Below are positions 2,360 to 17,220 of a DNA stretch of 64,000 nucleotides, piece by piece. The stretch is from the NCBI GenBank assembly GCA_012728375.1, contig JAAYFF010000025.1, forward strand, positions 13,741 through 77,740, in the 5' to 3' direction. The DNA comes from Bacillota bacterium (GTDB taxonomy: Bacteria; Bacillota; Dethiobacteria; DTU022; UBA8154). Every line of letters begins with the position of its first letter. The stretch's first letter is position 1. The notes under the pieces are model-generated. The model did no database searches and was not told the origin of the DNA. It saw nothing but the letters and a program-made list of their open reading frames with translations. Position numbers and translations under genes: made by a program.

Positions 2360-4294
2360 ATGAAAAAAGCCCGCATAGTTATGATTTCCCCCCTTCCCGA
2401 GTTAACCAGGCTTGCCCGGCAGATTTCCAGGGAGCAAAATTTTAAACTGGAGATCGTGGAAGCTTTTCTGGATAAGGGAGTGGAAAAGGGCAAAAGGTTC
2501 GAACAGGCGGGTGCGGATGTAATTATCAGCCGCGGTCCCACGGGCGTGCTCCTCAAAAGAGAACTTTCCATTCCCGTTGTTTTAATCCAGATGACCAATT
2601 TTGATATTATTCGCGCTCTCTACCAGGCCAAGCAGTTAGGCCGGAAAATAGCTTATTTTGACCACATTAAGTGCAAGGAAATTTATGATTTTAAAATGAT
2701 CGATGAAATCCTTTCCCTGGAGGACCTGAGCTTTTTCTTTTACCGGGACGAAAGGGAGCTTGAAGCGCAGATACAGAGAGCGCAGGATGAAGGGGTAGAA
2801 GTTATTGTCGCCTCGGGTATTTGCATTCTGCGCATGGCCAAAATCCGCGGCATGAAGGGCGTGATGGCCTTTCCCTCCCGGGAAGCCGTTATTGAAGCCC
2901 TGCAGTGGGCCCAGGATGTTGTGCGCATGCGCGAAAAGGACCGGGAGAAAGCGGAATTTCTTAAAACCATTATTGATCATACATACACAGGCGTTATTGC
3001 CGTAAATAAAAAAGGTGAAGTAACACATTTCAACCGTTCTGCAGAAGAAATTTTCAAAGTTTCCCGCAATGATGCGGTTGGCAAAAAGGTGGAGAACCTG
3101 CCGATTCCCCTGCTGAAAATTTTTTACCAGGCCTCCGGGGAGGGGAAAGAGGAGGTACATAAAATCGGGGGTAAGCAAATCCTCTTTCACCGTATTCCCA
3201 TTTACATCGACAATGAGAAACACGGGACAGTCATTACCTTCCAGAGCGTTCACAAGATTCAGAACCTCGAGGCTACCATCCGCAAGAAACTCCATAGCAG
3301 CGGCCTTGTTTCACGCTACACCTTTAATCATCTCGTCGGCTCCTCACCGGAAATGGTAAAAACAATAAACCGTGCCAAAAAATTTGCAGCTTCCGGTTCA
3401 ACAGTTTTAATTATCGGGGAAAGCGGTACCGGAAAAGAGCTTTTTGCCCATAGCATTCACGCTGAGAGTCCTCGTCGCGAAGGACCGTTCGTGGCTATTA
3501 ACTGCGCCAGTATTCCCAAAGAATTGCTGGAAAGCGAGCTCTTTGGTTATGAAGAGGGCTCGTTTACAGGAGCCAAGAAAGGCGGGAAAATAGGGCTTTT
3601 TGAGCTTGCACACGGCGGAACGATTTTCCTGGACGAGATATCTGAGCTCTCTCCCCCTCTGCAGCTAAATCTGTTGCGGGTTCTCCAGGAAAAAGTGGTG
3701 CGCCGCATCGGCGGGGAACGGATTATTCCTGTAGATGTGAGGGTGCTCGCCGCCACAAACCGTTTTTTAGCCGGGGAAGTAAAAAAGGGGAATTTTCGGG
3801 AAGATCTTTTTTTCCGCCTTAATGTTTTAAACTTGCATATCCCTCCTTTGCGGCAGCGTAGAGATGATATTCCCCTTTTGATTGAACATTTTTGCAGGAA
3901 GTATAGGGGGAGCAGGAGCGGCAGCGAAGAATTCCCTCCCTCCATTATTCGCTATCTTTGTGAATATGACTGGCCGGGCAATGTCCGGGAGCTGGAAAAT
4001 TTCATTGAAAAATATGTTTTTCTTTCCGAAGAGGGTGCGGATAATTTTCGTTTAATTGAGGAACTGGTTGATGAGCTTTACCGCTACAGGGAAGACGAGC
4101 AGGGTCTCGTGCCGGCCGGAGAACAATATTTAACTATTGGTGTAGGAAAGATGGAAGATATGGAGAGGCAAATTATTGAAAAGCTTTATAAACAGAGCAA
4201 GCGGGACAAGAAGGATCTGGCCCGGCAGCTTGGAATCAGCCGCACGACTCTCTGGAAAAAATTAAAAAGCATTGAATCCGGTTCTGTGAAGTAG
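2360..4294 (+). CDS. Sigma-54-dependent transcriptional activator, PrpR-like (PrpR_N sensor, PAS, AAA+ sigma-54 interaction domain, Fis-type HTH)
   Basis: Walker A GESGTGKE, a GAFTGA-type loop (EEGSFTGA), ELENFIE, and a C-terminal HTH (DLARQLGISRTTLWKKLK). The N-terminus is PrpR_N-like. ATG 2360 (MKKARIVMIS) is preferred over the track start 2327. Confidence 0.9.
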   Translation: MKKARIVMISPLPELTRLARQISREQNFKLEIVEAFLDKGVEKGKRFEQAGADVIISRGPTGVLLKRELSIPVVLIQMTNFDIIRALYQAKQLGRKIAYFDHIKCKEIYDFKMIDEILSLEDLSFFFYRDERELEAQIQRAQDEGVEVIVASGICILRMAKIRGMKGVMAFPSREAVIEALQWAQDVVRMREKDREKAEFLKTIIDHTYTGVIAVNKKGEVTHFNRSAEEIFKVSRNDAVGKKVENLPIPLLKIFYQASGEGKEEVHKIGGKQILFHRIPIYIDNEKHGTVITFQSVHKIQNLEATIRKKLHSSGLVSRYTFNHLVGSSPEMVKTINRAKKFAASGSTVLIIGESGTGKELFAHSIHAESPRREGPFVAINCASIPKELLESELFGYEEGSFTGAKKGGKIGLFELAHGGTIFLDEISELSPPLQLNLLRVLQEKVVRRIGGERIIPVDVRVLAATNRFLAGEVKKGNFREDLFFRLNVLNLHIPPLRQRRDDIPLLIEHFCRKYRGSRSGSEEFPPSIIRYLCEYDWPGNVRELENFIEKYVFLSEEGADNFRLIEELVDELYRYREDEQGLVPAGEQYLTIGVGKMEDMERQIIEKLYKQSKRDKKDLARQLGISRTTLWKKLKSIESGSVK

Positions 4295-4330
4295 TTTCAC
4301 CATTTTGAACAAAGGGAGAACTTCTCTTGT

Positions 4331-4346
4331 TGGCATATAAATTGCA
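4331..4346 (+). promoter_or_regulatory. Sigma-54 (-24/-12) promoter: TGGCAT-N5-TTGCA
   Basis: tTGGCATataaaTTGCAtat matches the consensus TGGCAC-N5-TTGCW, with GG and GC 10 nt apart. It lies immediately downstream of the activator gene and upstream of the thiolase operon. Confidence 0.55.
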
Positions 4347-4498
4347 TATTTTCATTAATAGTAGACAAATTCCCCTTTTATAAAAATCTGGGTTTAACAT
4401 ATAAAAGCCCTGTTTAGTAGATAATTTGTAGGCTTATCAAGGAAAGGCATAAGGAATAAAAGAAAGGGGGGTTAAAAAAGTAAACATTGTTTCCGCGT

Positions 4499-4523
4499 GT
4501 CCAGTTAAAAAAATGGACATGAC
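4499..4523. promoter_or_regulatory. Conserved element copy 2: inverted repeat GTCCA-N10-TGGAC containing TTAAAAAAATGGACATGA (candidate activator-binding site / UAS)
   Basis: Near-identical to 2289-2306. It sits between the sigma-54 promoter (4331) and the thiolase start (4674). Confidence 0.4.
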
Positions 4524-4673
4524 TTCTCGCCAAAGCCGGAAATCAAGACGCTTATCAAGGCTTAAAAGGGAAGAGGAGGCATTATTTTTCAGTAAAAGAT
4601 GGGGTTAGGTTTTTGCATCTATAAAAAAATAGAAGGGAGGAAGTCCCGAAAGTGAACGCTTTCGGGGAAACAA

Positions 4674-5855
4674 ATGAAAAACCCAGTAATTGTAAGTGCC
4701 GTAAGGACTATCGCCGGCAGCTTTGGCGGCAGCTTAAAGAGCAAGACCGCTGCTGATCTGGGAGCAGCAGTTGTTGCCGAAGCTGTTAAGAGGGCGGGGA
4801 TCTCTCCTGAGGATGTGGATCAGTTAATTTTCGGTTGCGGTTGGCAGGCGGGAATTGGCCCGAATATTGCCCGTATCTGTGCTGTTCGGGGAGGGCTTCC
4901 TCACAAAGTGCCCGCCTATACAGTCAACATTCGTTGCGCTTCCAGCCTTCAGGCGATTATTGACGGATGCCGGTCCATTATGTGCGGCGATAATAATGTG
5001 TTGGTTGTGGGCGGTACCGAATCCGGTTCCAACGTTCCCTTCCTGATTCCCCAGGCCCGCTGGGGCGCCCGCATGTGGGATTTCCCCGTTTATGACGGTT
5101 TGCACTATGATGGTTTTAAGTGTATGCTGGCAGGAATGTTTATGGGCAATACCGCTGAACTCCTGGCAGAGAAATACAACATCAGCCGGCAGGAGCAGGA
5201 CGAATTTGCCCTGTGGAGCCATCAGAAAGCAGCGAAAGCTGTTGCTGAAGACAAATTCAGGGATGAAATTGTTCCCATTGAAGTTACCCAAAAGAAGAAG
5301 ACAGTGATCGTGGATCAGGAAGAAATTCCCCGGGCCGATGCTTCGTTGGAAAAAATGCTCAAGTTGCCCCCGGTATTTAAAAAAGACGGCACGGTAACGG
5401 CCGGCAATAGCTGCGCACTCTGCGACTGTGCATCCGCCCTGGTGATTATGTCTGAAGAAAGAGCTAAGTCCCTGGGAGTTACACCTATCGCCCGCATTGT
5501 GAGTTATGCTGAAGCAGGGGTAGATCCCATGTACATGGGAATTGGCCCGGTTGCCGCCATTCCTAAAGCCCTGGAAAGAGCCGGACTGAAGCTGGATGAT
5601 ATCGATCTCATTGAGTTAAACGAAGCTTTTGCCGCCCAGTATTTAGCCTGTGAAAGGGAACTGAAATTTAACCGGGAGAAAATTAATATCCACGGCGGAG
5701 CCATCGCCCTTGGTCACCCTGTGGGGGCCACCGGTACCAAACTCGTTACCACCAACCTCAATACCCTGAAACAATATGGCAAGACCCTTGGCATGACCAG
5801 CATGTGCGTGGGCGGCGGCCAGGGATTGGCTGTCATCGTAGAAAGATTAAACTAG
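4674..5855 (+). CDS. Acetyl-CoA acetyltransferase (thiolase)
   Basis: MKNPVIVSAVRTIAGSFGG... The thiolase active-site regions are present (NIRCASSLQAI, GNSCALCDCASALVIM, GHPVGATG). 393 aa. Confidence 0.9.
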   Translation: MKNPVIVSAVRTIAGSFGGSLKSKTAADLGAAVVAEAVKRAGISPEDVDQLIFGCGWQAGIGPNIARICAVRGGLPHKVPAYTVNIRCASSLQAIIDGCRSIMCGDNNVLVVGGTESGSNVPFLIPQARWGARMWDFPVYDGLHYDGFKCMLAGMFMGNTAELLAEKYNISRQEQDEFALWSHQKAAKAVAEDKFRDEIVPIEVTQKKKTVIVDQEEIPRADASLEKMLKLPPVFKKDGTVTAGNSCALCDCASALVIMSEERAKSLGVTPIARIVSYAEAGVDPMYMGIGPVAAIPKALERAGLKLDDIDLIELNEAFAAQYLACERELKFNREKINIHGGAIALGHPVGATGTKLVTTNLNTLKQYGKTLGMTSMCVGGGQGLAVIVERLN

Positions 5856-5908
5856 GCTCTTGTATATTTTAATCATATAAATAAAAGTATTTGAGAGGAG
5901 GAAATTTT

Positions 5909-6793
5909 ATGGATATTAAAAAAGTATTTGTTCTGGGTGCCGGGATCATGGGTACAGGTATTGCGCACCTTTGTGCCCAGCAGGGATTGAACGTTGTCCT
6001 TGTTGATATTAACGAGGATATCCTCAAGCGCAGCATTAGCAATATCGAGGGGATCCTGAACAAGAGAGTCGAGAAGGGTAAAATAACTGCCGATGCAGCC
6101 AAAGAACTTGTCGGACGGATTAAAACTTCCACCGATAAAAAAGAAGCTGCCGGCTGCGATTTCGTTATTGAAGCGGTTACTGAAAATGTCAAGCTCAAGC
6201 AACAATTATTCGCCGAGCTTGACGAGATCGTTCCCGCAGGGATAATTCTTGCCACCAATACGACCGCCTGTTCCATTTCTGAGGTTGCTTCCGCAACCAA
6301 GGATCCAAGCCGGGTAATCGGAATGCACTTCTTCAATCCCGCAGTGGTCATGAAACTGGTGGAAATTATGCCCGGCCTGGCGACTAAACCTGAAGTTGCT
6401 GCGACAACCAAGGAACTCGTTGAGTTTTTAGGCAAAGAACCCGTTGTAACCGCCAAGGAAGGGATTGCCGGGATCGCCAGCCGCGTCCTGGCCGGTATGT
6501 TGAATGAAGCGGTTTGGGTGTTGGAAGAAGGGATCGGTACAGCCGCGGATATCGATAAGGCTATGAAGATGGGCTCCAATCTGCCCATGGGTCCCCTGGC
6601 GCTCATCGATATGATTGGAATCGATACCCACCTGGCCAAAACCAGAACCCTTTATGAAAAGCTGGGCGATGCCCGTTACCGTCCCTGCTACCTCCTGGAG
6701 AAAATGGTTCATGCCGGTTATCTGGGACGCAAATCAGGGAAAGGTTTCTATGATTACAGCCAGGATCCGCCCGTGCCCACAGTGTTAAGATAA
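5909..6793 (+). CDS. hbd: 3-hydroxybutyryl-CoA dehydrogenase
   Basis: [20 protein letters not shown] carries a Rossmann GxGxxG. The 3HCDH N and C domains are recognisable. RBS GAGAGGAGG precedes ATG 5909 (the track start TTG 5891 is rejected). Confidence 0.9.
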
Positions 6794-6906
6794 GTGCGGG
6801 TATAACGCGATACGCGAAAAACTTAAATTTTGAAAAATGCTGTTTTTGCAGGCTTGAGCCGGCGGCCAAGCTTTCAGAAAGGGCGAAAAAAAAAGGAGGT
6901 TATTTT

Positions 6907-8061
6907 ATGGATTTTGAACTGAATTCCGAACAACTGGCAGTGCAAAAGATGGTCCGCGAATTTGTTGAAAAAGAGATTACCCCCAATGCCAAGCAATGGG
7001 ACCTTGATGAGAAGTTCCCCATGGACACATGGAAGAAGATGGGCGATCTCGGAATTATCGGTACATCCATCCCCGAAGAATACGATGGTAGCGGAATGGA
7101 TTTCATCTCCCACGCTATTGTCGCGGAAGAGCTTGGTTACGGATGCTCCTCCATGCGGGGTTCTTATTCCGTGAATATCTCTCTGGTGGCCAAGACCATT
7201 TTGAAGTGGGGAACCGAAGAACAAAAGAAAAAGTACGTCCCCCCCATTGCCCGGGGAGAAGCTTTTGGCTGCTACGGCCTTACCGAGCCGGATTCGGGAA
7301 GCGATGCCGCCAGCTTGAAAAGTGTCGCGGAAAAGGATGGGGATTATTATATCCTCAACGGCAACAAAATGTGGATTACCCATGCCAATATGGCTGATGT
7401 TTCTCTTATTTTTGCCAAAACGGATAAAGATGCCGGAGCAAAGGGTATTACCTGCTTCCTGGTGGACAAAGGTACTCCTGGTATGAACCCGCAGCCCATT
7501 CATGAAAAGATCGGTCTTCGCGCCCAGGATACCGGCGAGATTTACATGGAGAACGTGCGCGTCCACAAGGACCAAATTTTGGGACCAATCGGCAAAGGTT
7601 TTGCCGTTGCCATGTCAGCTCTCGATAATGCACGTTTCACTGTTGCTGCAGGTTGCGTAGGCACCGCGCAGGCTGCTTACGATATTGCCAAGGCCCATGC
7701 CAAGGAAAGGGTTCAGTTTGGCAAAGTGATCGCCAGCCGTCAGCTTGTCCAGTCATTGCTGGCCAACATGATTCTGAATATAGAACTGGGCCGGATGCTC
7801 GTTTGGAGGGCCGGCTGGCTGAAGAATAAAGGAGTTCCCAATACCCGTGAGACCTCCATGGCCAAGTATTTCTGCGGCGAAATGGTTAACAAGGTTTGTT
7901 ATGATGCTATGCAGATACTGGGAGGCTACAGCTTCTCGGGCGAATATGCCCTGGAAAGAATGTACCGCGATTCCCGCATCAATACCCTTTACGAAGGCAC
8001 ATCCCAGATCCAGCAACTGATTATCGGCAATGCCGAGCTGGGAATTCCTGCTTTTGCATAA
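6907..8061 (+). CDS. bcd: Acyl-CoA dehydrogenase (short-chain/butyryl-CoA dehydrogenase type)
   Basis: 384 aa. ACAD N, M and C domains, with the catalytic-Glu context near the C-terminus (YEGTSQIQQLIIG). RBS AAAGGAGG. Confidence 0.9.
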   Translation: MDFELNSEQLAVQKMVREFVEKEITPNAKQWDLDEKFPMDTWKKMGDLGIIGTSIPEEYDGSGMDFISHAIVAEELGYGCSSMRGSYSVNISLVAKTILKWGTEEQKKKYVPPIARGEAFGCYGLTEPDSGSDAASLKSVAEKDGDYYILNGNKMWITHANMADVSLIFAKTDKDAGAKGITCFLVDKGTPGMNPQPIHEKIGLRAQDTGEIYMENVRVHKDQILGPIGKGFAVAMSALDNARFTVAAGCVGTAQAAYDIAKAHAKERVQFGKVIASRQLVQSLLANMILNIELGRMLVWRAGWLKNKGVPNTRETSMAKYFCGEMVNKVCYDAMQILGGYSFSGEYALERMYRDSRINTLYEGTSQIQQLIIGNAELGIPAFA

Positions 8062-8094
8062 AAGGCGAGAATTGTTATAAACTATTTCTAAAAG

Positions 8095-8153
8095 TATGGG
8101 GAAGGGGGAAAGGGAATTATCCCTTCCTCCATCCCCATTTTTTGTTACTTAGA
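8095..8153 (+). terminator. Long imperfect GC-rich hairpin followed by TTTTTTG (possible attenuator/terminator between bcd and crt)
   Basis: ATGGGGAAGGGGGAAAGGGAAttaTCCCTTCCTCCATCCCCAT, then tttttg. Confidence 0.35.
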
Positions 8154-8177
8154 CTTTAAAAAAGAGGAGGTATGGAG

Positions 8178-8957
8178 ATGTACCAGTTTATTAAATATGA
8201 AAAAGAAGCGCCTCTGGCGATTATTACCGTTAATCGCCCGGAAGTCATGAATGCTATGAATAATGCCCTTGTGGAAGAGTTTGCCCAGGCCTTTAAAGAA
8301 GCGGAAAATGACGATGAAGTAAGAGCGCTGATTATAACCGGGGAAGGCAACAAGGCTTTCATGGCCGGTGCGGATATCAAGGAAGTACAGGCTAGAGACT
8401 TTGTTCTGGGGCGCAAACAGACCCGCAGGCGCCAGGAAGTATTAAACATGCTGTATGAAATGCCCAAGCCCGTAATCGCCGCTATTAACGGATTTGCCCT
8501 CGGGGCCGGCTTGGAGACGGCACTGGCCTGCACACTGCGCATTGCCTCTACCAACGCCAAACTGGGCGCTCCGGAAGTAAACCTGGGGATTATTCCCGGC
8601 GACGGTGCCACCCAGCGTCTTCCGAGAATGATTGGCTTTGGCCGTGCAATGGAGATGGTTTTAACGGCGCGTATGGTGGATGCCGAAGAGGCCTACCGCA
8701 TCGGGCTGGTAAACAAGGTGGTGCCCCAGGAAGAATTAATGGAAGAAGCTAAAAAAATGGCCGGCAGCATTATCAACAAATCGCCTCTGGCCATCCAGTA
8801 CGCCAAGGAAGCAGTCAACCGCTCCATGGAAATGGGTCTTTATGAAGGAATGGCCCATGAGTCTTACCTCCACGCCCTGGCCTGTGCCACGGAGGATAAG
8901 AAAGAAGGAGTTGCCGCATTCCTGGAGAAGCGTAAAGCCCAGTATCAAGGGAAATAA
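8178..8957 (+). CDS. crt: Enoyl-CoA hydratase (crotonase family)
   Basis: The crotonase fold is recognisable (LAIITVNRPEVMNAMN, FMAGADIKE, ING-A-GAGLETALACTLRIA). RBS GAGGAGG at 8164-8170 favours ATG 8178 over 8172. Confidence 0.9.
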   Translation: MYQFIKYEKEAPLAIITVNRPEVMNAMNNALVEEFAQAFKEAENDDEVRALIITGEGNKAFMAGADIKEVQARDFVLGRKQTRRRQEVLNMLYEMPKPVIAAINGFALGAGLETALACTLRIASTNAKLGAPEVNLGIIPGDGATQRLPRMIGFGRAMEMVLTARMVDAEEAYRIGLVNKVVPQEELMEEAKKMAGSIINKSPLAIQYAKEAVNRSMEMGLYEGMAHESYLHALACATEDKKEGVAAFLEKRKAQYQGK

Positions 8958-9096: not shown

Positions 9097-9384
9097 TTGG
9101 AAATTTCCCGGGAAGAGTTCATGCAAGCGTCGTGGGATGCCCGTCTGGAACTGATGCCGGAAGAATTGGAAGGATTGGAGAAACAGACAAAAAATATCTT
9201 CGAACAGGCAACTTTTTTGCAAAGTAGTGCGCTGGATGATGTGGAAGCCACATATTTTCCCCTTGCACAGAAAAATACAGTGAGAGAAGATCTCGCTGCA
9301 CCTTCTTTACCGCTGGAAACAGCGTTGTCGAATGCTCCTGGAGCTGAATCGCCTTACATCCAGGTTCCAAAGATTGTCGAGTAA
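9097..9384 (+). CDS. gatC: Asp-tRNA(Asn)/Glu-tRNA(Gln) amidotransferase subunit C
   Basis: 95 aa with a GatC-like sequence. TTG start at 9097 directly follows an in-frame TGA. AGGA lies 12 nt upstream. Confidence 0.8.
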   Translation: MEISREEFMQASWDARLELMPEELEGLEKQTKNIFEQATFLQSSALDDVEATYFPLAQKNTVREDLAAPSLPLETALSNAPGAESPYIQVPKIVE

Positions 9385-9416
9385 GGTATATTATAATTGA
9401 AGGGAGACCTGATTTT

Positions 9417-10865
9417 TTGGATTTCTATAAACATATCGTTCAAAAACTCGCCGGGGAAGTCAACGCCAAAGAGGTTTCCCCGCAACAAATCGGAGAAGAT
9501 GTGGCGCGGCGTTGTGCTGCAGTACACGAAAAGTGCAATGCCTTCATTAAATTTGACCCCGAATTGATTGAGAAAGGAATAAAGGACATCTCGCAAAAAA
9601 TTGCGCAGAATAAAAAACTGCCGCTGGCCGGTGTTTCCTTTGGTCTGTCCGATGCAATCTGCGTAGGCGGAACGACGACGACCTGTGCCTCACGGATGCT
9701 GGAATCTTATCGACCTCCTTTTGAAGCGTCGGTTGTCTTGAAATTGAAGGAATGGGGAGCTTTTCCTGCCGGCAAAACCAATATGGATGAGTTCAACCTT
9801 GGAGCAACCGGAAAAAACTCCTTTTTCGGGGAAATAAAAAATCCCTGGGATACAGAATATACAGCCGGCAGCGGAGCTGCGGCAGCTGTCTCAAGTCGTG
9901 CTGTGAATTTTGCCCTCGCTCCGGACGGATGCGGTGAGTTGAGATATTCCGCCTCCTACTGCGGTATTCCTGCCCTTAAGCCTACGTATGGCAGAGTTTC
10001 CCGTAAAGGTTTGGTTGATGTGGCTCCCTCCCTGGATCAAATCGGCATTATGGCCCCATCTGTCCTTGATCTTGCCGCAATTTTGGAGGCTATTAGCGGA
10101 TATGATCCGGAGGATCCCACTTCATTTGCCCATGAGGTACCTTCATATACATTGCTACTGCAGGAAAAAGAAAACATTGGTCCCTTTAAGGTTGCTGTTC
10201 CGGAGAACTGGGCGGAAGCTCCTTATCTGGAAGAGGGGATTAAAAAAGCCTTTCTTGAGACATTGGAATATTTAAAGAAGGAAAATTTCCAGGTACAAAT
10301 GGTTTCCTTGCCGAATTTTTCGCATTCCCTTGTCACTGCTGCCATAATTCGTGCTGTGGAGGCCTTTTCTTCTCTGGGCAATTATGATGGTGTGCGATTT
10401 GGGCTCAGGGTAGAAGGAAGCCATCTGCAGGAAATGTACAGAAAAAGCCGCACAGAAGGTTTTGGCAGCAACCTGAAACAGTTCCTGACTTTTGGAGCCC
10501 TCATCTCCGCGGGAAACTACTACGGCATGGTTTTCCAAAAAGCACAAAAGATGCGCACCCTTATTATTAAGGAATTGGAAAGCTGCCTGCAGTCATTTGA
10601 TCTGCTCTTTATTCCTGCCGTTCCCTTTCAGGCGCCGCTGCTGAGCAGCAACGACAAGGCATGTTTGCTGCCCGACCCCGCGGGCTATTACACTGCTGCA
10701 GCAAACCTTGCCGGCCTGCCGGCAATCACCATTCCGGTGCCTGCCGAATCTGTTAGCGGCTCAGCCGGAGTGCAATTTATCGGGAAGGCCTTTGATGAAG
10801 CAAAACTTTTACAAGCCGGCCTGCTCCTTGAAAAAGAAAACCCTCCGCGTTTTCCCAATGTTTAA
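9417..10865 (+). CDS. gatA: Glutamyl-tRNA(Gln) amidotransferase subunit A (amidase family)
   Basis: Amidase signature (GGSSGG-like GSGAAAAVSS, KPTYGRVSR). TTG start with GGGAG RBS. 482 aa. Confidence 0.9.
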   Translation: MDFYKHIVQKLAGEVNAKEVSPQQIGEDVARRCAAVHEKCNAFIKFDPELIEKGIKDISQKIAQNKKLPLAGVSFGLSDAICVGGTTTTCASRMLESYRPPFEASVVLKLKEWGAFPAGKTNMDEFNLGATGKNSFFGEIKNPWDTEYTAGSGAAAAVSSRAVNFALAPDGCGELRYSASYCGIPALKPTYGRVSRKGLVDVAPSLDQIGIMAPSVLDLAAILEAISGYDPEDPTSFAHEVPSYTLLLQEKENIGPFKVAVPENWAEAPYLEEGIKKAFLETLEYLKKENFQVQMVSLPNFSHSLVTAAIIRAVEAFSSLGNYDGVRFGLRVEGSHLQEMYRKSRTEGFGSNLKQFLTFGALISAGNYYGMVFQKAQKMRTLIIKELESCLQSFDLLFIPAVPFQAPLLSSNDKACLLPDPAGYYTAAANLAGLPAITIPVPAESVSGSAGVQFIGKAFDEAKLLQAGLLLEKENPPRFPNV

Positions 10866-10938
10866 GGAGATTGGCTGTGTTATCCGGTTTAAAGTCTACC
10901 ATTTTTAGAAGTGTTCAAGATTAGAAGGAGGGATTTTT

Positions 10939-12387
10939 TTGCACGAATATGAAACCGTAATCGGACTGGAAGTTCATGTGGAACTGTTGACCGATACGAA
11001 ATTGTTTTGCGGATGCAGTACCGCCTTTGGAGCCGAACCGAATACGCAGGTCTGCCCAATATGCCTGGGCCTTCCCGGAGGTACACTGCCTCTGTTAAAT
11101 AAAAAAGCGGCAGAATTTACCATTAAAGCCGCTTTGGCGCTCAACTGCGAGATTGCTCCAAAGATTGCTTTTGACCGGAAAAATTATTTCTATGCGGATT
11201 TGCCCAAGGGCTTTCAGATTTCTCAATATTTTTATCCCATGGGGAGAAATGGTTATATAGAATTCCTGGTTAATGGAAAAACAAAAAGAGTCGGTATTCA
11301 CCAGCTCCACCTGGAAGAGGATACGGGCAAGCTTTCCCATATTGGGGACGACATTATCTCTTCTCCCTCCAGCAGGGTTGATTTTAACCGGGCCGGAGTG
11401 CCGCTGATGGAAATCGTCTCCGAGCCGGATATTCGATCTGCAGAAGAGGCACGGCTTTTTCTGCAGAAACTGCGCTCCATCATTCGTTACCTGGACATTT
11501 CGGATTGTAAAATGGAAGAGGGCTCCATGCGTTGCGACGCCAATATCAGCATACGCCCCGTTGGCTCCACTGAGTTTGGGAAGAAAACGGAGCTAAAAAA
11601 CATGAATTCCTTCCGCTCAGTTTATCGCGGTATAGAATACGAGGCAGAGAGGCAACGTTCCGTTGTGCTTTCGGGAGAAAGCGTTATTCCCGAAACCAGG
11701 CATTGGGACGAAGCCAAGGGTGTGACCCGGGCAATGCGCAGCAAGCTTGTTTCGGCAGATTATCGCTGTTTCCCTGATCCCAATATTCCACCCTATCCTG
11801 TTACTGAAGAATGGATACAAGAAATTAAAAAGACTATTCCCGAGCTTCCTGACGAGCGCTACAAGCGTTTAACAGAAGAGCACGACCTTCCGTCTTCAAC
11901 TGCAGAAGTGCTCACCAGCTCAAAAGAGTTGGCTGATTTTTATGATGCCGTCCTCTCCGTTCACAATGAGCCCAAAACGGTCAGCAACTGGATTGTAAGC
12001 GAGTACCTGGGCCTTCTCAACGCAGCAGGCATGGATATTACGGAATCAAAGATAACGCCCGCCGGGCTCGGAAAGCTTTTGCAAAGCATCGCAAAAGGTG
12101 AAATAAGCGGAAAAATAGGGAAAACAGTCTTTGAAGAGATGTTTAACACCGGCGAAGATCCGGCGCTGATTATTGAAAAAAAGGGGCTCAAGCAGATATC
12201 CGATACAGATACCCTCTCCCGGATTATCTCCGCGGTCCTGGCCGCAAACCCGCAATCTATTGAAGATTACCGCAAAGGTAAAAAAAGAGCCATGGGCTTT
12301 CTGGTCGGTCAGATTATGAAAGAAACAAAGGGTCAGGCCAATCCACAGCTCGTCAACAAGCTGCTCATGGAGGAGCTGAACAAGTAG
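10939..12387 (+). CDS. gatB: Aspartyl/glutamyl-tRNA amidotransferase subunit B
   Basis: MHEYETVIGLEVHVEL is the canonical GatB N-terminus. TTG start with GAAGGAGG RBS. 482 aa. Confidence 0.9.
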   Translation: MHEYETVIGLEVHVELLTDTKLFCGCSTAFGAEPNTQVCPICLGLPGGTLPLLNKKAAEFTIKAALALNCEIAPKIAFDRKNYFYADLPKGFQISQYFYPMGRNGYIEFLVNGKTKRVGIHQLHLEEDTGKLSHIGDDIISSPSSRVDFNRAGVPLMEIVSEPDIRSAEEARLFLQKLRSIIRYLDISDCKMEEGSMRCDANISIRPVGSTEFGKKTELKNMNSFRSVYRGIEYEAERQRSVVLSGESVIPETRHWDEAKGVTRAMRSKLVSADYRCFPDPNIPPYPVTEEWIQEIKKTIPELPDERYKRLTEEHDLPSSTAEVLTSSKELADFYDAVLSVHNEPKTVSNWIVSEYLGLLNAAGMDITESKITPAGLGKLLQSIAKGEISGKIGKTVFEEMFNTGEDPALIIEKKGLKQISDTDTLSRIISAVLAANPQSIEDYRKGKKRAMGFLVGQIMKETKGQANPQLVNKLLMEELNK

Positions 12388-12455: not shown

Positions 12456-13169
12456 TTATTCAAGTATCTCTCCCTCTATGCTGATAACAACAACTTCCAG
12501 GGGTATTTGTTTGCCGCTGCCTTCTATTGCCTGTTCCAAAAGGCGCTTTAATCCGGAACAGCAGGGCACTTCCATAATAAGAGCGGTTATTTTTTGTATT
12601 TCGTTATCCTTGATAATTTTAGTTAGCTTTTCCAGGTATATTATTGTATTGTCAAGCTTGGGACAGCCGACGCAAAGGGCCGTCCCTTCGCCCAGAAAAG
12701 TACGGTGAAAATCGCCATAGGCAAAGGGAACGCAGTCCGCAGCAACGATAAGATTTGCTTCCCGAAAAAATACGGCATTTGTCGGAAGGAGGGCCAGTTG
12801 TACCGGCCATTGGCGCAGAAGGGAAGGTGCCCTTTCCCCTTTTTCAATTGGAAAAGGACGGCTGGTGGTTCTTGCCAAAGAGGAAGGACATCCGCTGACC
12901 GGAGAGCAAAAGTCCAGCGCTGTTGCCTGCATGCTGCTTAGATGTTTCTTGACTGCTTCCTCATCGTACGCCTCAGCATCACGCTCCACAATGGTGATTG
13001 CCCCGTGCGGACATTCCTTCAGACAGTCTCCCAGGCCGTCACAGAGTTTTTCGGCAATAAGGCGCGCTTTTCCATCAATAATTTGTATTGCTCCCTCGTG
13101 GCAGGCCGGGATACATATTCCGCAACCAGTGCATTTATCTTCATCAATATGCACAATTTTCCTTTTCAA
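12456..13169 (-). CDS. 4Fe-4S dicluster-domain protein, uncharacterised
   Basis: N-terminal CTGCGICIPACHEG and CDGLGDCLKECP ferredoxin motifs, plus a Cys-rich C-terminus (CVGCP, EVPCCSG). TTG start with GGGGGAGG RBS. Confidence 0.6.
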   Translation of the reverse strand: MKRKIVHIDEDKCTGCGICIPACHEGAIQIIDGKARLIAEKLCDGLGDCLKECPHGAITIVERDAEAYDEEAVKKHLSSMQATALDFCSPVSGCPSSLARTTSRPFPIEKGERAPSLLRQWPVQLALLPTNAVFFREANLIVAADCVPFAYGDFHRTFLGEGTALCVGCPKLDNTIIYLEKLTKIIKDNEIQKITALIMEVPCCSGLKRLLEQAIEGSGKQIPLEVVVISIEGEILE

Positions 13170-13228: not shown

Positions 13229-14224
13229 TTATACATTTAACTCGACAATGTCCCCGTCTTCCAGGACATAATCCCGGGCTACCGATTGCCCGTCATATTT
13301 GGAGGAACCCCAGATACGGGCATTTTTTAGGCGGTTCGGAAAATCCCGGTGAATGTTGTAGGCCAGATCGAGGACTGTTTCTCCCCTTTTAAGGACAAAG
13401 GGAGTGCCCATATCGGGCTGTTTTCCCGGAGCTTTGGTATAAACCCGGATGATTTCCAGCGCTTGAAAAATCTTTTCTTTCAGCGCATTAAGGGTTGTTT
13501 CGTCGTTAACGGATACCTGAAGAAAGGAAAGGTTTGGATTTAGTTCCTGCAAAATTTTTAAGTTTTCCCGGCTTTGCGGGTGATCAGATTTTGTCGCGGC
13601 AATGAGGAAAGGAAGAACTTGTATTTTTCCAATCTTACCGTCTTCCGCGGGAGGACGCTTGCCGGACAGATCGTAAATTACTTTTTTATTGAGCAAAAAA
13701 GAAAGCGTTTCTTCCGTTTGTTCCAGGCAGAGGTCCGAGCTGGTATCAATGGTAATTAGCAGCAGATCCCCCCCCCGGAGCGTATTTAACAGGCCTGGCG
13801 GAGGTCCTTCGCTGCTGATGGGCGGTGTATCGACCAATTGAATAAAAATATCTTGATATGGCATCATTCCTGCCAAGGGGAAGGAAGTTGTAAAGGGATA
13901 TTCGGCTACTTTGGCTTTAGCCCTGGTGAGGGCTGATAGGAGGGATGACTTGCCGGTATTGGGATAACCTACCATAACAACTTGCCCCGCGCCTTGTTTT
14001 TCTACAAAGAAAGGATTATAACGGCTGCCCTTGGCTTTTTTCTCGCCTTCCTCTTTTAATTTGGAGAGGCGTCGTTTAAGGTCAGCCTGCAGTTTTTCCG
14101 TCCCTTTGTGTTTGGGTATCACGGCCAGCATTTCCTGAAGGGCTTCAATTTTTTCCTCGAGCGTGGAAGCTTTCTTAAAAGCTTCTTCAGCAGCATGGTA
14201 CTGAGGTGTAAGGTTAGCCGGCAT
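13229..14224 (-). CDS. Obg-family GTPase with C-terminal TGS domain, DRG/Rbg-like
   Basis: G1 GYPNTGKSSLLSAL. N-terminal coiled-coil region like DRG proteins. C-terminal TGS-like segment (VLEDGDIVEL). Confidence 0.65.
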   Translation of the reverse strand: MPANLTPQYHAAEEAFKKASTLEEKIEALQEMLAVIPKHKGTEKLQADLKRRLSKLKEEGEKKAKGSRYNPFFVEKQGAGQVVMVGYPNTGKSSLLSALTRAKAKVAEYPFTTSFPLAGMMPYQDIFIQLVDTPPISSEGPPPGLLNTLRGGDLLLITIDTSSDLCLEQTEETLSFLLNKKVIYDLSGKRPPAEDGKIGKIQVLPFLIAATKSDHPQSRENLKILQELNPNLSFLQVSVNDETTLNALKEKIFQALEIIRVYTKAPGKQPDMGTPFVLKRGETVLDLAYNIHRDFPNRLKNARIWGSSKYDGQSVARDYVLEDGDIVELNV

Positions 14225-14331
14225 TGAACTTTCCCTACCTCTTTTAGTAAATAAAATATTTAAGTTCTAAATATTTCCGAAGGGCTTTACCCCTTCCCTT
14301 ATATTTATTTTATCTTGAAATGGTGATAAAA

Positions 14332-17220
14332 TCAATGCCCTGGAGCTTCATCCCCTGATAACCCGTAGTTTTGGGAGAGTATGTTCAGATCAAGGTTATT
14401 AACAAAACCGTCACCGTTCAGGTCGGCAAGAGAATTCCAGTTTTTATCGCCGGGTTTGGTAAAATAAGCCAGGGATAAGAGGGAGAGGTCCGTCAGATCG
14501 ATTTTGTTGTCGTTGTTCAGATCCCCTGCTAGCATCTTGATGGGGCCCAGGTTAATAAACTTTTGTTTTTCCCACAGCTCTATCCCAATTACTTTTGTAA
14601 GATGCTGTCTGCTGCTTATCACTAGCAAATAAGAGCCCAGGGGAAGGTTAAGGTCAAAAGAACCGTCTTTGGCAAAAGATGTAACGGGAAAGATTTCTTT
14701 AGTGTCACGGCAGATAAAACGGGCGGAGATCCTTTCTCCGTTTAATGATGGCTTTCCCTGGAGCTGTATTGTCCCGGTGATACGGGTTCCTTTTTTGATT
14801 ATGTAGGAAAACTCCGAGACAGGCCCTGGAATGGTGCCCAAGTAGGTCCGGGTTTTTAAGATGCTCGTTTTGTCGATGACAATGGGTCTTTCATAGACGG
14901 TGCTTTTTTCATGGGGATCGGTGCCGTCAAGGGTATAGGTTATTTTTTCTCCGCTGCCCGCCTGCAAGCTGATCTCAACCGTATTGATATATGTTCCCGG
15001 GTCGGGATGGGGGACGGCAGGTTTTATCTCCACGACGGCAATCTTAAATTCTGCAGATTTGTCGTTAAACGTTCCCCGGATAATACTTTCTCCCGGAGCA
15101 AGACCTGTAATGACGCCATTTTCAACCCGGGCAACGGCCGGATTGGATGAATGCCAGGTTACCAGCTCAGGTTGGATTTCTTTAAGTATGCGGGAAGAAA
15201 ACATGGCCTCTGCCCTTACAGCGGTTTCCTCACCCAGGGCTATTTTTGTTTTTTCCGGCGTTAGCCTGAGGCGATCGAGAGCCCTTAATGGCAGCGGATA
15301 CGCTTTAAGCGTCAGATCATCAATGTGCCATCCCATTCCTGAACCGTTATTATCGCTCTGAATCCGAAAACGGAGATAGAGGGAATTCGCTTCCCCCGGA
15401 CAGCTGAGGGGAATGGAAAAAGGTTCAAGTTTGCCGTTGCTTCCTGAAAAACGGTAGAGGATGGACCAGTTAATGCCGTCAACGGAAATTTCTACATAAG
15501 CATAGTCTTCACTGTCTTCGGTTTTTGCGAGGCCATAACAATGTTGAAAAAAAAGGACAGGGCTGTGGTATCCGTCTAGGAGGATAGGTTTTGCCGTAGC
15601 AATCCAGGAAGACGTATTGTTATTATAATCTTCCCATGGAGAGTCGGCAAAGGAAAATCTTCCGCTTCCCGCCAGTTCCCTGGTAATTTTCCAGGGGGTT
15701 TCCGGAGAGGTTTTCCAGTTAATGATTCCTTCTTCCGCACCGTCAAAAAAAAGAAGCTCCGGCGGCATGAGAGGCTCGTGTTTAACTGCGGCGTAAACGT
15801 CCGGAAGGCCGTAACCATAAACATTATTGGGACGGGAGCCGGAATTGTCCCAGAGGGGATCCCAAAAGGAAGTACTTTTTAGAAGGTATTTTATCTCTGC
15901 TGGGGAAAGATCGGGCTTGGCCCCCAGCAGAAGGGCAGCTGCTCCGGAAAGGTGAGCTGCTGCTGTGGATGTGCCGTCCTGGATAGCGTATTTTTTGCCG
16001 GGCCAGGTGGAAACGATATTTACGCCCGGTGCAACCAAGTCCGGTTTTATGTAAGAAATATCCTGCCAGCGAACAGGACCCTTGCTGCTGAAATTTGCTG
16101 CTTCAAAGCGGTCGCCCGCCTGTTTAAGGGCGCCTGCACAAAAAGAGTGGGGGTAACTGGCCGGGCTGCCGGGGCCTTCCTCACCGTTGTTGCCGGAGGC
16201 AAAAATTACCGTAATGCCAGCTTTTTCTAAAGTATATAAAATATCCCAATGAAGGAAATCTTCTGCAAATTCAGGTCTTGATGCCCAGGAACAATTGATG
16301 ATGTCCGGGGCATGATCGGGGTTCCCCCCGGGGGCAAGAAGCCATTGAAAGGCCAGGGCGATATGAGAATCCCAGGCATATCCATCGGAAAAGATGTTGA
16401 CGGCAATCCAGCGCGCTCCCGGCGCAATGCCCAGCGGCTTTTCTTTGCTGCCGCCCACGATAATCCCGGTAATATGGGTGCCGTGGCCGTGTGTATCTAC
16501 GGGCCCTTCCGCAGAGTTGGGTAGGGTTCCCGTGGCGTCGAACCAGCTGTCTTTATGGCTGTGGCCCGGGAGATTGCCGCGGTAATTTTGTTCCAGGTCG
16601 GGATGGTTCAGGTCTACCCCCGTATCCATAACGGCAACGACGACACCGTCCCCAAAATAACCTTCCTTCCAAAGGGGGGGTACATTTATAGCCTGCAGAT
16701 TAAAAAGATCTTTGCCTCTGCCGGGGAATTCATCCAAGAACATGCTTGCCTGAAAGACAGCCCGTTCCGGTTTGGAAACAGCGGAGAGGTAGCCGCGGCG
16801 ATGATCCAGGGTGATTGTTTTTATCTGGGGAAGTGCGCAGAGGCGTTTTAAGCCTTCTTTATTTATCTGTGCTGAGAAAGCGTTGATTACCCATAGGGAT
16901 TTGTAGCCGCGAAGGTTTCCATTGGCAGTTTCTTCTTTTAAAATGGGGAGTATTTCTTCCTCAGCAACTTTATTTGCCCTTTGTAATTCTTCAACTGCCG
17001 CACGCCCTGAAGCGGCCTTCATATCGGCAGGATCTTGCCCGGGGAGGGCCTTTTTTTTGAAAAAGGCAATGACAGGGACAAACGGTTCGGAGTCCAGGTA
17101 TTGTAAAACTTCGGGAGAGACGGTATTTTCTGTGTTTTTACCCAGGCAGTAAGTGAAAGGGTTAACAAGAAAAAATGTGATAAGAATTAGAATAGCCGGT
17201 GTTCTAACCTGCTTTAACAT
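14332..17220 (-). CDS. Secreted subtilisin-family (S8) serine protease with Big_2 and Fn3/CHB_HEX_C-like domains and a C-terminal type-I dockerin
   Basis: Signal peptide. The D/H/S triad is present (VMDTGVD, HGTHITG, GTSTAAAHLSGAAALL). The C-terminal DLNNDNKIDLTDLSLL...DLNGDGFVNNLDLNIL tandem Ca-binding repeats are dockerin-like. Confidence 0.85.
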   Translation of the reverse strand: MLKQVRTPAILILITFFLVNPFTYCLGKNTENTVSPEVLQYLDSEPFVPVIAFFKKKALPGQDPADMKAASGRAAVEELQRANKVAEEEILPILKEETANGNLRGYKSLWVINAFSAQINKEGLKRLCALPQIKTITLDHRRGYLSAVSKPERAVFQASMFLDEFPGRGKDLFNLQAINVPPLWKEGYFGDGVVVAVMDTGVDLNHPDLEQNYRGNLPGHSHKDSWFDATGTLPNSAEGPVDTHGHGTHITGIIVGGSKEKPLGIAPGARWIAVNIFSDGYAWDSHIALAFQWLLAPGGNPDHAPDIINCSWASRPEFAEDFLHWDILYTLEKAGITVIFASGNNGEEGPGSPASYPHSFCAGALKQAGDRFEAANFSSKGPVRWQDISYIKPDLVAPGVNIVSTWPGKKYAIQDGTSTAAAHLSGAAALLLGAKPDLSPAEIKYLLKSTSFWDPLWDNSGSRPNNVYGYGLPDVYAAVKHEPLMPPELLFFDGAEEGIINWKTSPETPWKITRELAGSGRFSFADSPWEDYNNNTSSWIATAKPILLDGYHSPVLFFQHCYGLAKTEDSEDYAYVEISVDGINWSILYRFSGSNGKLEPFSIPLSCPGEANSLYLRFRIQSDNNGSGMGWHIDDLTLKAYPLPLRALDRLRLTPEKTKIALGEETAVRAEAMFSSRILKEIQPELVTWHSSNPAVARVENGVITGLAPGESIIRGTFNDKSAEFKIAVVEIKPAVPHPDPGTYINTVEISLQAGSGEKITYTLDGTDPHEKSTVYERPIVIDKTSILKTRTYLGTIPGPVSEFSYIIKKGTRITGTIQLQGKPSLNGERISARFICRDTKEIFPVTSFAKDGSFDLNLPLGSYLLVISSRQHLTKVIGIELWEKQKFINLGPIKMLAGDLNNDNKIDLTDLSLLSLAYFTKPGDKNWNSLADLNGDGFVNNLDLNILSQNYGLSGDEAPGH

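Follow-up and report, generated by a model that had tools for sequence, protein, structure and literature searches.

The window analysed here is a stretch of 64,000 nucleotides from a Bacillota contig (JAAYFF010000025.1, positions 13,741 to 77,740), and our subject is a complete gene at 13229..14224 on its minus strand, which encodes a 331-residue GTPase resembling the DRG (Rbg) proteins of Archaea and eukaryotes. The gene opens with an ATG and closes with a stop codon at 13229-13231; an earlier reading of the letters alone (the sequence-only reading) had placed it at exactly these coordinates, which are those of the listing of open reading frames (ORFs). Its product is identical (100%) to a protein from public metagenomes (P0001). 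Compared with three orthologues of 82-85% protein identity (L002-L004), its ratio of nonsynonymous to synonymous substitution rates (dN/dS) is 0.07-0.11, and the gene is under strong purifying selection. That selection, together with thousands of homologues, marks the ORF as real, far beyond a chance ORF. No other TRAFAC-type P-loop GTPase is encoded in the window.

Modules and motifs of the protein

Features of the protein are given below by residue (aa) and by window position, the latter always on the minus strand. The sequence-only reading had called the architecture DRG-type, with N-terminal helices, a G domain and a TGS domain, and all three are there: an N-terminal helical region (aa 1-66; 14027..14224), an Obg-class G domain (aa 77-257; 13454..13996) and a C-terminal TGS domain (aa 258-331; 13232..13453). 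Pfam matches MMR_HSR1 at residues 81-180 (E = 2.6e-17) and TGS at residues 259-329 (E = 6.6e-17), the latter being the profile check that the sequence-only reading had proposed for its TGS assignment; this domain also aligns with the TGS domains of Rbg1, Rbg2 and human DRG1 (2eki), as in the DRG subfamily generally. An AlphaFold2 model with 36 homologues as input (mean predicted local distance difference test score, pLDDT, 82.5; predicted template modelling score, pTM, 0.70) has N-terminal helices at 7-18, 22-35 and 43-65, followed by a Ras-like G domain (about 81-256) and, at 258-330, a C-terminal domain rich in beta structure.

At the N-terminus, residues 24-66 align with Rbg2 from its residue 4 and with Rbg1 from its residue 8, and the region aligns as well with a DRG of Thermococcus. 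The three model helices, the alignments with Rbg1 and Rbg2 and a whole-chain Foldseek alignment agree in giving the protein the N-terminal helix-turn-helix (HTH) of the DRG subfamily. Residues 1-66 are the counterpart of the DRG HTH region plus a prokaryote-specific N-terminal extension; the extension, about 20 residues beyond Rbg1, is common to archaeal DRGs. The motif reads MPANLTPQY..AEE...EKIEALQEML..IPKHKGTEKL, and in 123 diverse members of the family its H39, K40, G41 and T42 vary little or not at all.

The nucleotide-binding motifs are mostly standard. Alignment places G1, the P-loop, at GYPNTGKS (aa 86-93; 13946..13969), the Asn89 of which is found in 378 of 382 family members. A G1 Asn is typical of K+-dependent TRAFAC GTPases, K+ dependence having been reported for other Obg-class enzymes, and here too the residue suggests dependence on K+. 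G2, in switch I, is YPFTT (aa 109-113; 13886..13900) and its Thr is conserved in 381 of the 382 members; pLDDT is low at 105-114, as expected of a mobile switch I. G4, the guanine-specificity motif read from the codons, is TKSD (aa 211-214; 13583..13594). Most of the 382 members have [NTS]KxD at this position, and a minority have degenerate forms (THxD, TGxD, THxS).

Two features depart from a canonical DRG, the absence of S5D2L and the unusual G3 motif, the latter overlooked by the sequence-only reading. The DRG-specific insertion is the S5D2L domain, located between G3 and G4 (PMC3510508); the "DRG-specific HTH insert" that the same reading proposed to look for was a misnomer, the HTH being N-terminal. 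The window protein lacks this insertion of about 65 residues. Its spacing from G3 to G4 is 75 residues and the median for similar short forms is 71, compared with 127 in the Thermococcus DRG, 128 in Rbg1, 130 in Rbg2 and 66 in ObgE. The short linker (aa 161-205; 13610..13744) consists in the model of one helix (166-179) and a low-confidence loop. Profile positions 166-193 span Rbg2 residues 154-233, so that some 50 Rbg residues are skipped, and of the Pfam MMR_HSR1_Xtn profile only the latter half is matched, with 17 bits where the cut-off is 35.

At G3, where DxxG is expected and Rbg1 and Rbg2 have DLPG, the window protein has DTPP (aa 132-135; 13820..13831; codons GAT ACA CCG CCC). Of the 382 relatives, 346 have Pro at the fourth position, 26 have Ala, 8 have Ser and only 2 have Gly, both of these S5D2L-bearing archaeal forms; several further S5D2L-bearing archaeal DRGs have ExPA or ExPP. 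Among the canonical G1-G5 motifs of DRGs, then, G1, G2 and G4 are kept and G3 is altered. The window protein keeps three of the four DRG modules (HTH region, G domain and TGS), and with S5D2L absent and the G3 glycine replaced it is a DRG-related variant and not a canonical DRG.

Family placement and distribution

A single-sequence phmmer search of the PDB ranks Rbg2 (1.4e-33) and Rbg1 (1.5e-28) ahead of Obg (4.8e-11) and YchF (about 1e-6). With a profile of 36 homologues the values are 2e-43 for Rbg2 and 8e-41 for Rbg1, versus 9.5e-18 for Bacillus Obg, 7.8e-15 for the Nog1-type PH1320 and 6e-9 for the Ygr210-type PH0525 (1wxq). Foldseek also puts Rbg1 at the top, over the whole chain (2.5e-18; template modelling score 0.63), with the runners-up PH1320, YchF, HflX and Nog1 at 4e-10 or worse. 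The lead of Rbg1/Rbg2 over other families amounts to 8-25 orders of magnitude (17-25 by sequence and profile, 8 by Foldseek).

For the phylogeny that the sequence-only reading had suggested as a check, we built a neighbour-joining (NJ) tree of the window protein, 16 labelled homologues, 141 cluster representatives, the Thermococcus DRG, Rbg1 and Rbg2 (the last two as sequences from HMMER alignments). The outgroups were E. coli ObgE, E. coli YchF and one Bacillota Obg, with Nog1 and Ygr210 left out, and bootstraps came from reduced-taxon runs. The DRG-type proteins split from Obg/YchF with 96% bootstrap support, and the window protein does not group inside YchF/EngD, the one placement named beforehand as speaking against a DRG. 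Its affinity to DRGs over all of Obg, YchF, Nog1 and Ygr210 comes from the profile scores, the tree split covering Obg and YchF only. The window protein is DRG/Rbg-type and neither Obg nor YchF, and the earlier description of it as DRG/Rbg-like rather than Obg was borne out, with Rbg1 and Rbg2 first in the PDB sequence, profile and Foldseek searches alike.

A comparison with known systems gives the same picture. Rbg1 and human DRG1 (PDB 4a9a and 7rr5; partner Tma46/DFRP1) have the same module order, with HTH-type helices, an Obg-class G domain and a TGS domain, and their G1, G2 and G4 motifs correspond to those of the window protein; however, Rbg1 has S5D2L, DLPG and about 369 residues, whereas the window protein has no S5D2L, DTPP and 331 residues. 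The same differences apply to Rbg2 and human DRG2 (PDB 7nrc chain So; partner Gir2/DFRP2), and the pathway through which Rbg2 and Gir2/Gcn1 together act on 80S ribosomes that are stalled and collided is absent from bacteria.

The closest characterisable relative is archaeal. Relatives of 364-392 residues are among the top matches of a search of cluster representatives, and one of them is a 388-residue Thermococcus protein (P0273, "OBG GTPase family GTP-binding protein"), which shares 47% identity with the window protein across the stretches that match. Its alignments with Rbg2 (2.3e-63) and Rbg1 run over the full length, which makes it a canonical archaeal DRG. Archaeal DRG and window protein share a near-identical N-terminus (MP[AT]N[LV]T.[QE]Y..AEE...EKI.AL..M....PKHKGTEKL) and a very similar TGS, and many archaeal DRGs, like the window protein, have no G3 glycine (ExPA, ExPP). 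Archaeal DRGs nevertheless keep S5D2L (127 residues from G3 to G4) and usually have Glu at the first G3 position, where the window protein has Asp.

Obg/CgtA/ObgE proteins are alike in their Obg-class G domain, their similar G3-G4 spacing (66 in ObgE) and their association with the ribosome, but they have a glycine-rich N-terminal fold and a canonical DIPG, and they lack both an HTH region and a TGS of this type. The N-terminus of the window protein is alpha-helical, and the 150-residue N-terminal domain of ObgE has no counterpart in it. YchF/OLA1/EngD proteins bind ribosomes and also join an Obg-class G domain to a TGS-like domain at the C-terminus, but they differ from the window protein in having a coiled-coil insertion between G3 and G4, an NxxE G4 (ATP-preferring) and no N-terminal HTH. 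The G4 of the window protein is TKSD and its G3-G4 spacing is 75 versus 131 in E. coli YchF; it scores 29.6 bits on TIGR00092, which has a cut-off of 279. The best partial NCBIfam matches are YchF-related and ObgE models at 66 bits versus cut-offs of 387-406, and the Obg models cover the G domain alone (51-66 bits versus cut-offs of 280-406).

The statement in the sequence-only reading that DRG-like proteins are uncommon in bacteria turned out to be overstated. With a profile of 123 diverse short forms, the short form is found at E<=1e-20 in at least 7,958 clusters of 90% identity; the single-sequence search likewise matches about 8,000 proteins or more, and 566 50%-identity clusters at E<=1e-30 include some archaeal DRGs. 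Ten or more bacterial phyla are represented; most clusters were unnamed in the cluster look-up, and the profile search gave the better breadth of taxa. Carriers in the Bacillota are Dethiobacter, Pelotomaculum propionicicum MGP, Desulforudis sp. Tu-874 (a complete genome) and Syntrophomonadaceae; with the Pelotomaculum and Desulforudis strains, the gene is represented among isolates and complete genomes as well. Other named carriers belong to the Chloroflexota (Chloroflexia), Acidobacteriota (Blastocatellia), Planctomycetota (Pirellulales), Armatimonadota, Nitrospinota (Nitrospinae), Tectomicrobia and candidate division TA06, and one is an alphaproteobacterial metagenome-assembled genome (MAG). 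An archaeal label, from Euryarchaeota and Micrarchaeota MAGs, is attached to a few short forms, and such MAG labels need care. A separate observation concerns four loci (L012, L019, L020 and L024) in MAGs titled "uncultured Desulfovibrionaceae bacterium", the GTPase genes of which are 64-69% identical to that of the window; several of them have the S8-protease/Rnf synteny of Dethiobacteria, and their taxonomic labels look unreliable.

Database names for the short forms include "ribosome-interacting GTPase 1" (often, in IMG), "GTP-binding protein RBG1", "TGS domain-containing protein" and "GTPase Obg": this is one family to which names are applied inconsistently across databases. The literature has largely passed it by. 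A 2021 review places DRG homologues in Archaea "though not in bacteria" (PMC8629797), a plant GTPase study likewise denies bacterial DRGs (PMC4263083), and preprints of 2024 and 2026 take ObgE to be "the bacterial Drg orthologue", with a tree in which Rbg sequences are archaeal and eukaryotic only; the 2026 phylogeny sets archaeal and eukaryotic Rbg/Drg beside bacterial Obg. A 2013 COG survey, by contrast, lists COG1163 in all bacterial groups examined (PMC3685469), and our literature search for a described bacterial DRG found only that table and the preprints that mean ObgE by "bacterial Drg". The bacterial branch is large, uncharacterised and lacks both S5D2L and the G3 glycine; it is present in databases and implicit in comparative-genomic resources, undescribed as a family and overlooked by the DRG literature. 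Its wide occurrence corrects the phyletic picture of DRGs.

Proposed function and its alternatives

DRG GTPases are conserved translation factors, the basic mechanism of which is still debated. Our preferred reading, which we hold with a probability of roughly 60%, is that the window protein represents a large, mostly bacterial "minimal" DRG/Rbg branch and would serve as a stand-alone factor of the 70S ribosome, by homology with Rbg1 on the 80S ribosome. In the Rbg1/Tma46-80S complex, the G domain and HTH lie at the 60S subunit's sarcin-ricin loop, S5D2L at the A-site tRNA and TGS at h5 of the 18S rRNA (bioRxiv 10.1101/2020.07.06.190082). By analogy, the window protein would dock on the 70S ribosome at the GTPase-associated centre through its G domain and HTH, its TGS would contact small-subunit rRNA near h5 and, without S5D2L, no contact with the A-site tRNA would be made. 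At slow or paused ribosomes it would adjust translation, or signal the nucleotide state to them.

Deletions in yeast Rbg1 bear on whether such a protein could function: removal of the HTH or TGS inactivates Rbg1, and Rbg1 without S5D2L is temperature-sensitive, complements at 30 C, keeps GTPase activity and sediments with polysomes (PMC3510508). Since Rbg1 is functional after deletion of S5D2L, a DRG without this domain can work, and the bacterial protein may be regarded as in effect a natural version of that deletion. As a natural form with neither S5D2L nor a DFRP, it is suited to asking which activities are intrinsic to the core of HTH, G domain and TGS.

Several observations weigh against a ribosomal role of this kind. 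Rbg1 reaches polysomes through its DFRP partner Tma46, which is bound by the TGS domain (PMC3510508), and DFRPs are uncertain even in Archaea (PMC8629797). Among 43 related loci there is no conserved neighbour gene able to encode a DFRP partner (no dedicated DFRP search was made), and a scan of the same loci for any conserved partner, whether a DFRP analogue or a 4Fe-4S protein, found none beyond the order level. We know of no DFRP in bacteria, so the mode of recruitment would have to differ from that of the DFRP-dependent Rbg1. Nor do these 43 loci have a ribosome-linked genomic context conserved across lineages; the only translation-related neighbour seen, an RlmI-like gene, occurs in one distant lineage and is anecdotal. 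No NCBIfam model matches the protein at its cut-off, which leaves it without a curated bacterial family name. Finally, a protein that has lost both the S5D2L that contacts tRNA and the G3 glycine may have diverged substantially in activity.

The G3 substitution bears directly on nucleotide handling. As G1, G2 and G4 are conserved, guanine-specific (Mg-GTP) binding is predicted to be intact. In Ras, Gly60 hydrogen-bonds the gamma-phosphate, and the G60A mutation drastically lowers intrinsic GTPase activity and traps the protein in the inactive "state 1" (PMC4867591). The conserved G3 Pro cannot give a backbone N-H to the gamma-phosphate, so that an unusual switch II and slow intrinsic GTPase activity are to be expected; under our preferred reading, hydrolysis would fire only with the ribosome and/or K+. 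With the near-universal DxxG glycine replaced and the change fixed in nature, the family is a useful test case for how the Obg-class switch II works.

The main alternative takes this residue to abolish the GTPase cycle altogether: with switch II locked by the Pro, the protein would be a nucleotide-binding sensor that reports the level of GTP, GDP or (p)ppGpp through TGS and HTH, on the ribosome or elsewhere. Such a sensor would account for Pro, Ala or Ser at the G3 glycine position in 380 of the 382 members, for the equivalence to the impaired Ras mutant, for the retained binding motifs and for the degenerate G4 of a minority; TGS is moreover present in RelA/SpoT, and there is a weak match to the NCBIfam spoT_relA model over the TGS. 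However, the near-invariant G2 Thr and G1 Asn serve catalysis and cation coordination and not mere binding. Obg-class GTPases are hydrophobic-substituted (HAS-type) and do not rely on a switch-II Gln, which makes Ras an imperfect guide. Archaeal DRGs that bear S5D2L can also have ExPA or ExPP, and the substitution is therefore compatible with archaeal DRG activity. We consider the sensor unlikely, and continue to prefer a ribosome factor with a functioning GTPase.

Another possibility is that the GTPase works with the products of its neighbours, for example in the insertion or maturation of a metallocentre, like HydF or HypB. The 4Fe-4S protein gene (12456..13169, minus strand; 237 residues) lies 59 nucleotides downstream of the GTPase gene, and its product has two [4Fe-4S] ferredoxin motifs at residues 5-60. 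The sequence-only reading had noted this gene as adjacent and on the same strand, which it is, but the adjacency is not conserved outside Dethiobacteria: it occurs in 7 of the 43 related loci, all Dethiobacteria-type, and the four closest relatives (L001-L004; 82-85% identity) do not have the 4Fe-4S gene there. Upstream, an S8 protease gene precedes the GTPase gene in 22 Dethiobacteria-type loci and is conserved within that order alone. Pelotomaculum, Desulforudis and other phyla have unrelated neighbours.

The close spacing of both genes on the same strand in the window, their recurrence in those 22 and 7 loci and a weak NCBIfam match of the G domain to HydF (3.7e-6) fit such a partnership. 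Against this, neither gene accompanies the GTPase outside one order, a promoter-like site and a hairpin separate the GTPase gene from the protease gene, and an architecture of HTH and TGS is that of RNA- and ribosome-binding factors. We think a joint function with either neighbour very improbable, and conclude that the GTPase gene is evolutionarily stand-alone, the Fe-S adjacency being lineage-specific synteny that carries no functional signal. Lastly, we give almost no credence to an ordinary Obg/CgtA or YchF/EngD member that only resembles a DRG: the best partial NCBIfam matches and the name "GTPase Obg/ObgE" of some relatives point that way, but the glycine-rich fold and the coiled-coil insert are missing, the N-terminal motif and TGS are common to archaeal DRG, and at the level tested the scores, Foldseek, architecture and 96% NJ split reject such membership.

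Evolution of S5D2L and details of the locus

In the rooted NJ topology, S5D2L-bearing forms are basal and the short forms are a derived clade beside P0241, with poor support: bootstrap values are 30-44% for a strict short-form clade (about 75% when two rogue sequences are left free) and 37% for a long-form clade, and the two clades never occur together in one replicate. S5D2L was either lost by bacteria that had taken up an archaeal gene or gained by Archaea, and the bootstraps favour neither firmly. If the short form is ancestral and S5D2L was gained in the archaeal line, Obg would be a paralogue and not "the bacterial DRG orthologue", and bacteria carrying the gene would be the simplest system for the fundamental DRG function. 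A wider picture, in which DRG is a family of all three domains of life and its bacterial branch a partner-independent "core DRG" on the 70S ribosome with a glycine-less switch II, is one that we offer tentatively, as possible though doubtful as a whole.

Two sets of sequences touch on this question. P0241 (L051, 5837-7015) is a DRG of 392 residues that keeps S5D2L, has the bacterial-type DTPP and stands beside the short forms in the tree. It is probably archaeal, given a RaSEA/ArcS-like archaeosine-synthesis gene on the same contig, and may be intermediate between canonical and short forms. Short DRG-like proteins labelled archaeal (the product of L042 2020-2907, P0243, P0270 and P0197/P0321; Micrarchaeota and Euryarchaeota MAGs) include some with ExPA, and much of the G3-G4 region is deleted in the L042 protein. 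Their grouping with long archaeal forms suggests that deletions occurred independently or that contigs were mis-binned.

The gap between the S8 protease gene and the GTPase gene is 107 nucleotides. A putative Shine-Dalgarno sequence, AAGAGGTAGGG (14233..14243, minus strand), purine-rich and 8 nucleotides before the ATG, was picked out by eye. Further upstream, a consensus scan finds a sigma-70-like promoter match (TTGATT-17-TAAAAT, 9 of 12 positions; 14307..14335, minus strand), which is weak evidence, as the total of such sites in the scan is not above shuffle expectation. The GC-rich hairpin at 14279-14296, seen in the sequence, could equally be the terminator of the protease gene. An Rfam scan of the whole window found no family at gathering score.

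The closest genomic match to the locus is a Dethiobacter alkaliphilus MAG (85% protein identity), where S8 protease and Rnf genes flank the GTPase gene likewise; the window gene is a typical family member and the locus itself is unexceptional. The upstream protease (14332-17220, minus strand) is a secreted S8 subtilase of 962 residues that carries Fn3_assoc/CHB_HEX_C domains and, at its C-terminus, a type I dockerin (aa 898-950); no gene bearing a cohesin was noticed in its vicinity. In the 4Fe-4S protein, the conserved Cys-rich C-terminal half (about 150 residues; CVPFAYGDF...CPKLD...MEVPCCSGL) has no Pfam, NCBIfam or PDB sequence match. In most Dethiobacteria loci (L003, L006, L007 and others) the next genes downstream of the GTPase gene form an operon, on the opposite strand, for enoyl-CoA hydratase, acyl-CoA dehydrogenase, 3-hydroxyacyl-CoA dehydrogenase and thiolase. 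In the window (4674-8957, 9097-12387), GatCAB and the 4Fe-4S gene intervene between the GTPase gene and that operon, which indicates a local rearrangement. The distant bacterial lineage with the RlmI-like gene (L047-L050) carries its short DRG gene (4001-4996) on closed metagenomic chromosomes of up to 5.85 Mb, directly after this rRNA methyltransferase gene (PUA and SAM methyltransferase domains) and before a gene for NAD kinase.

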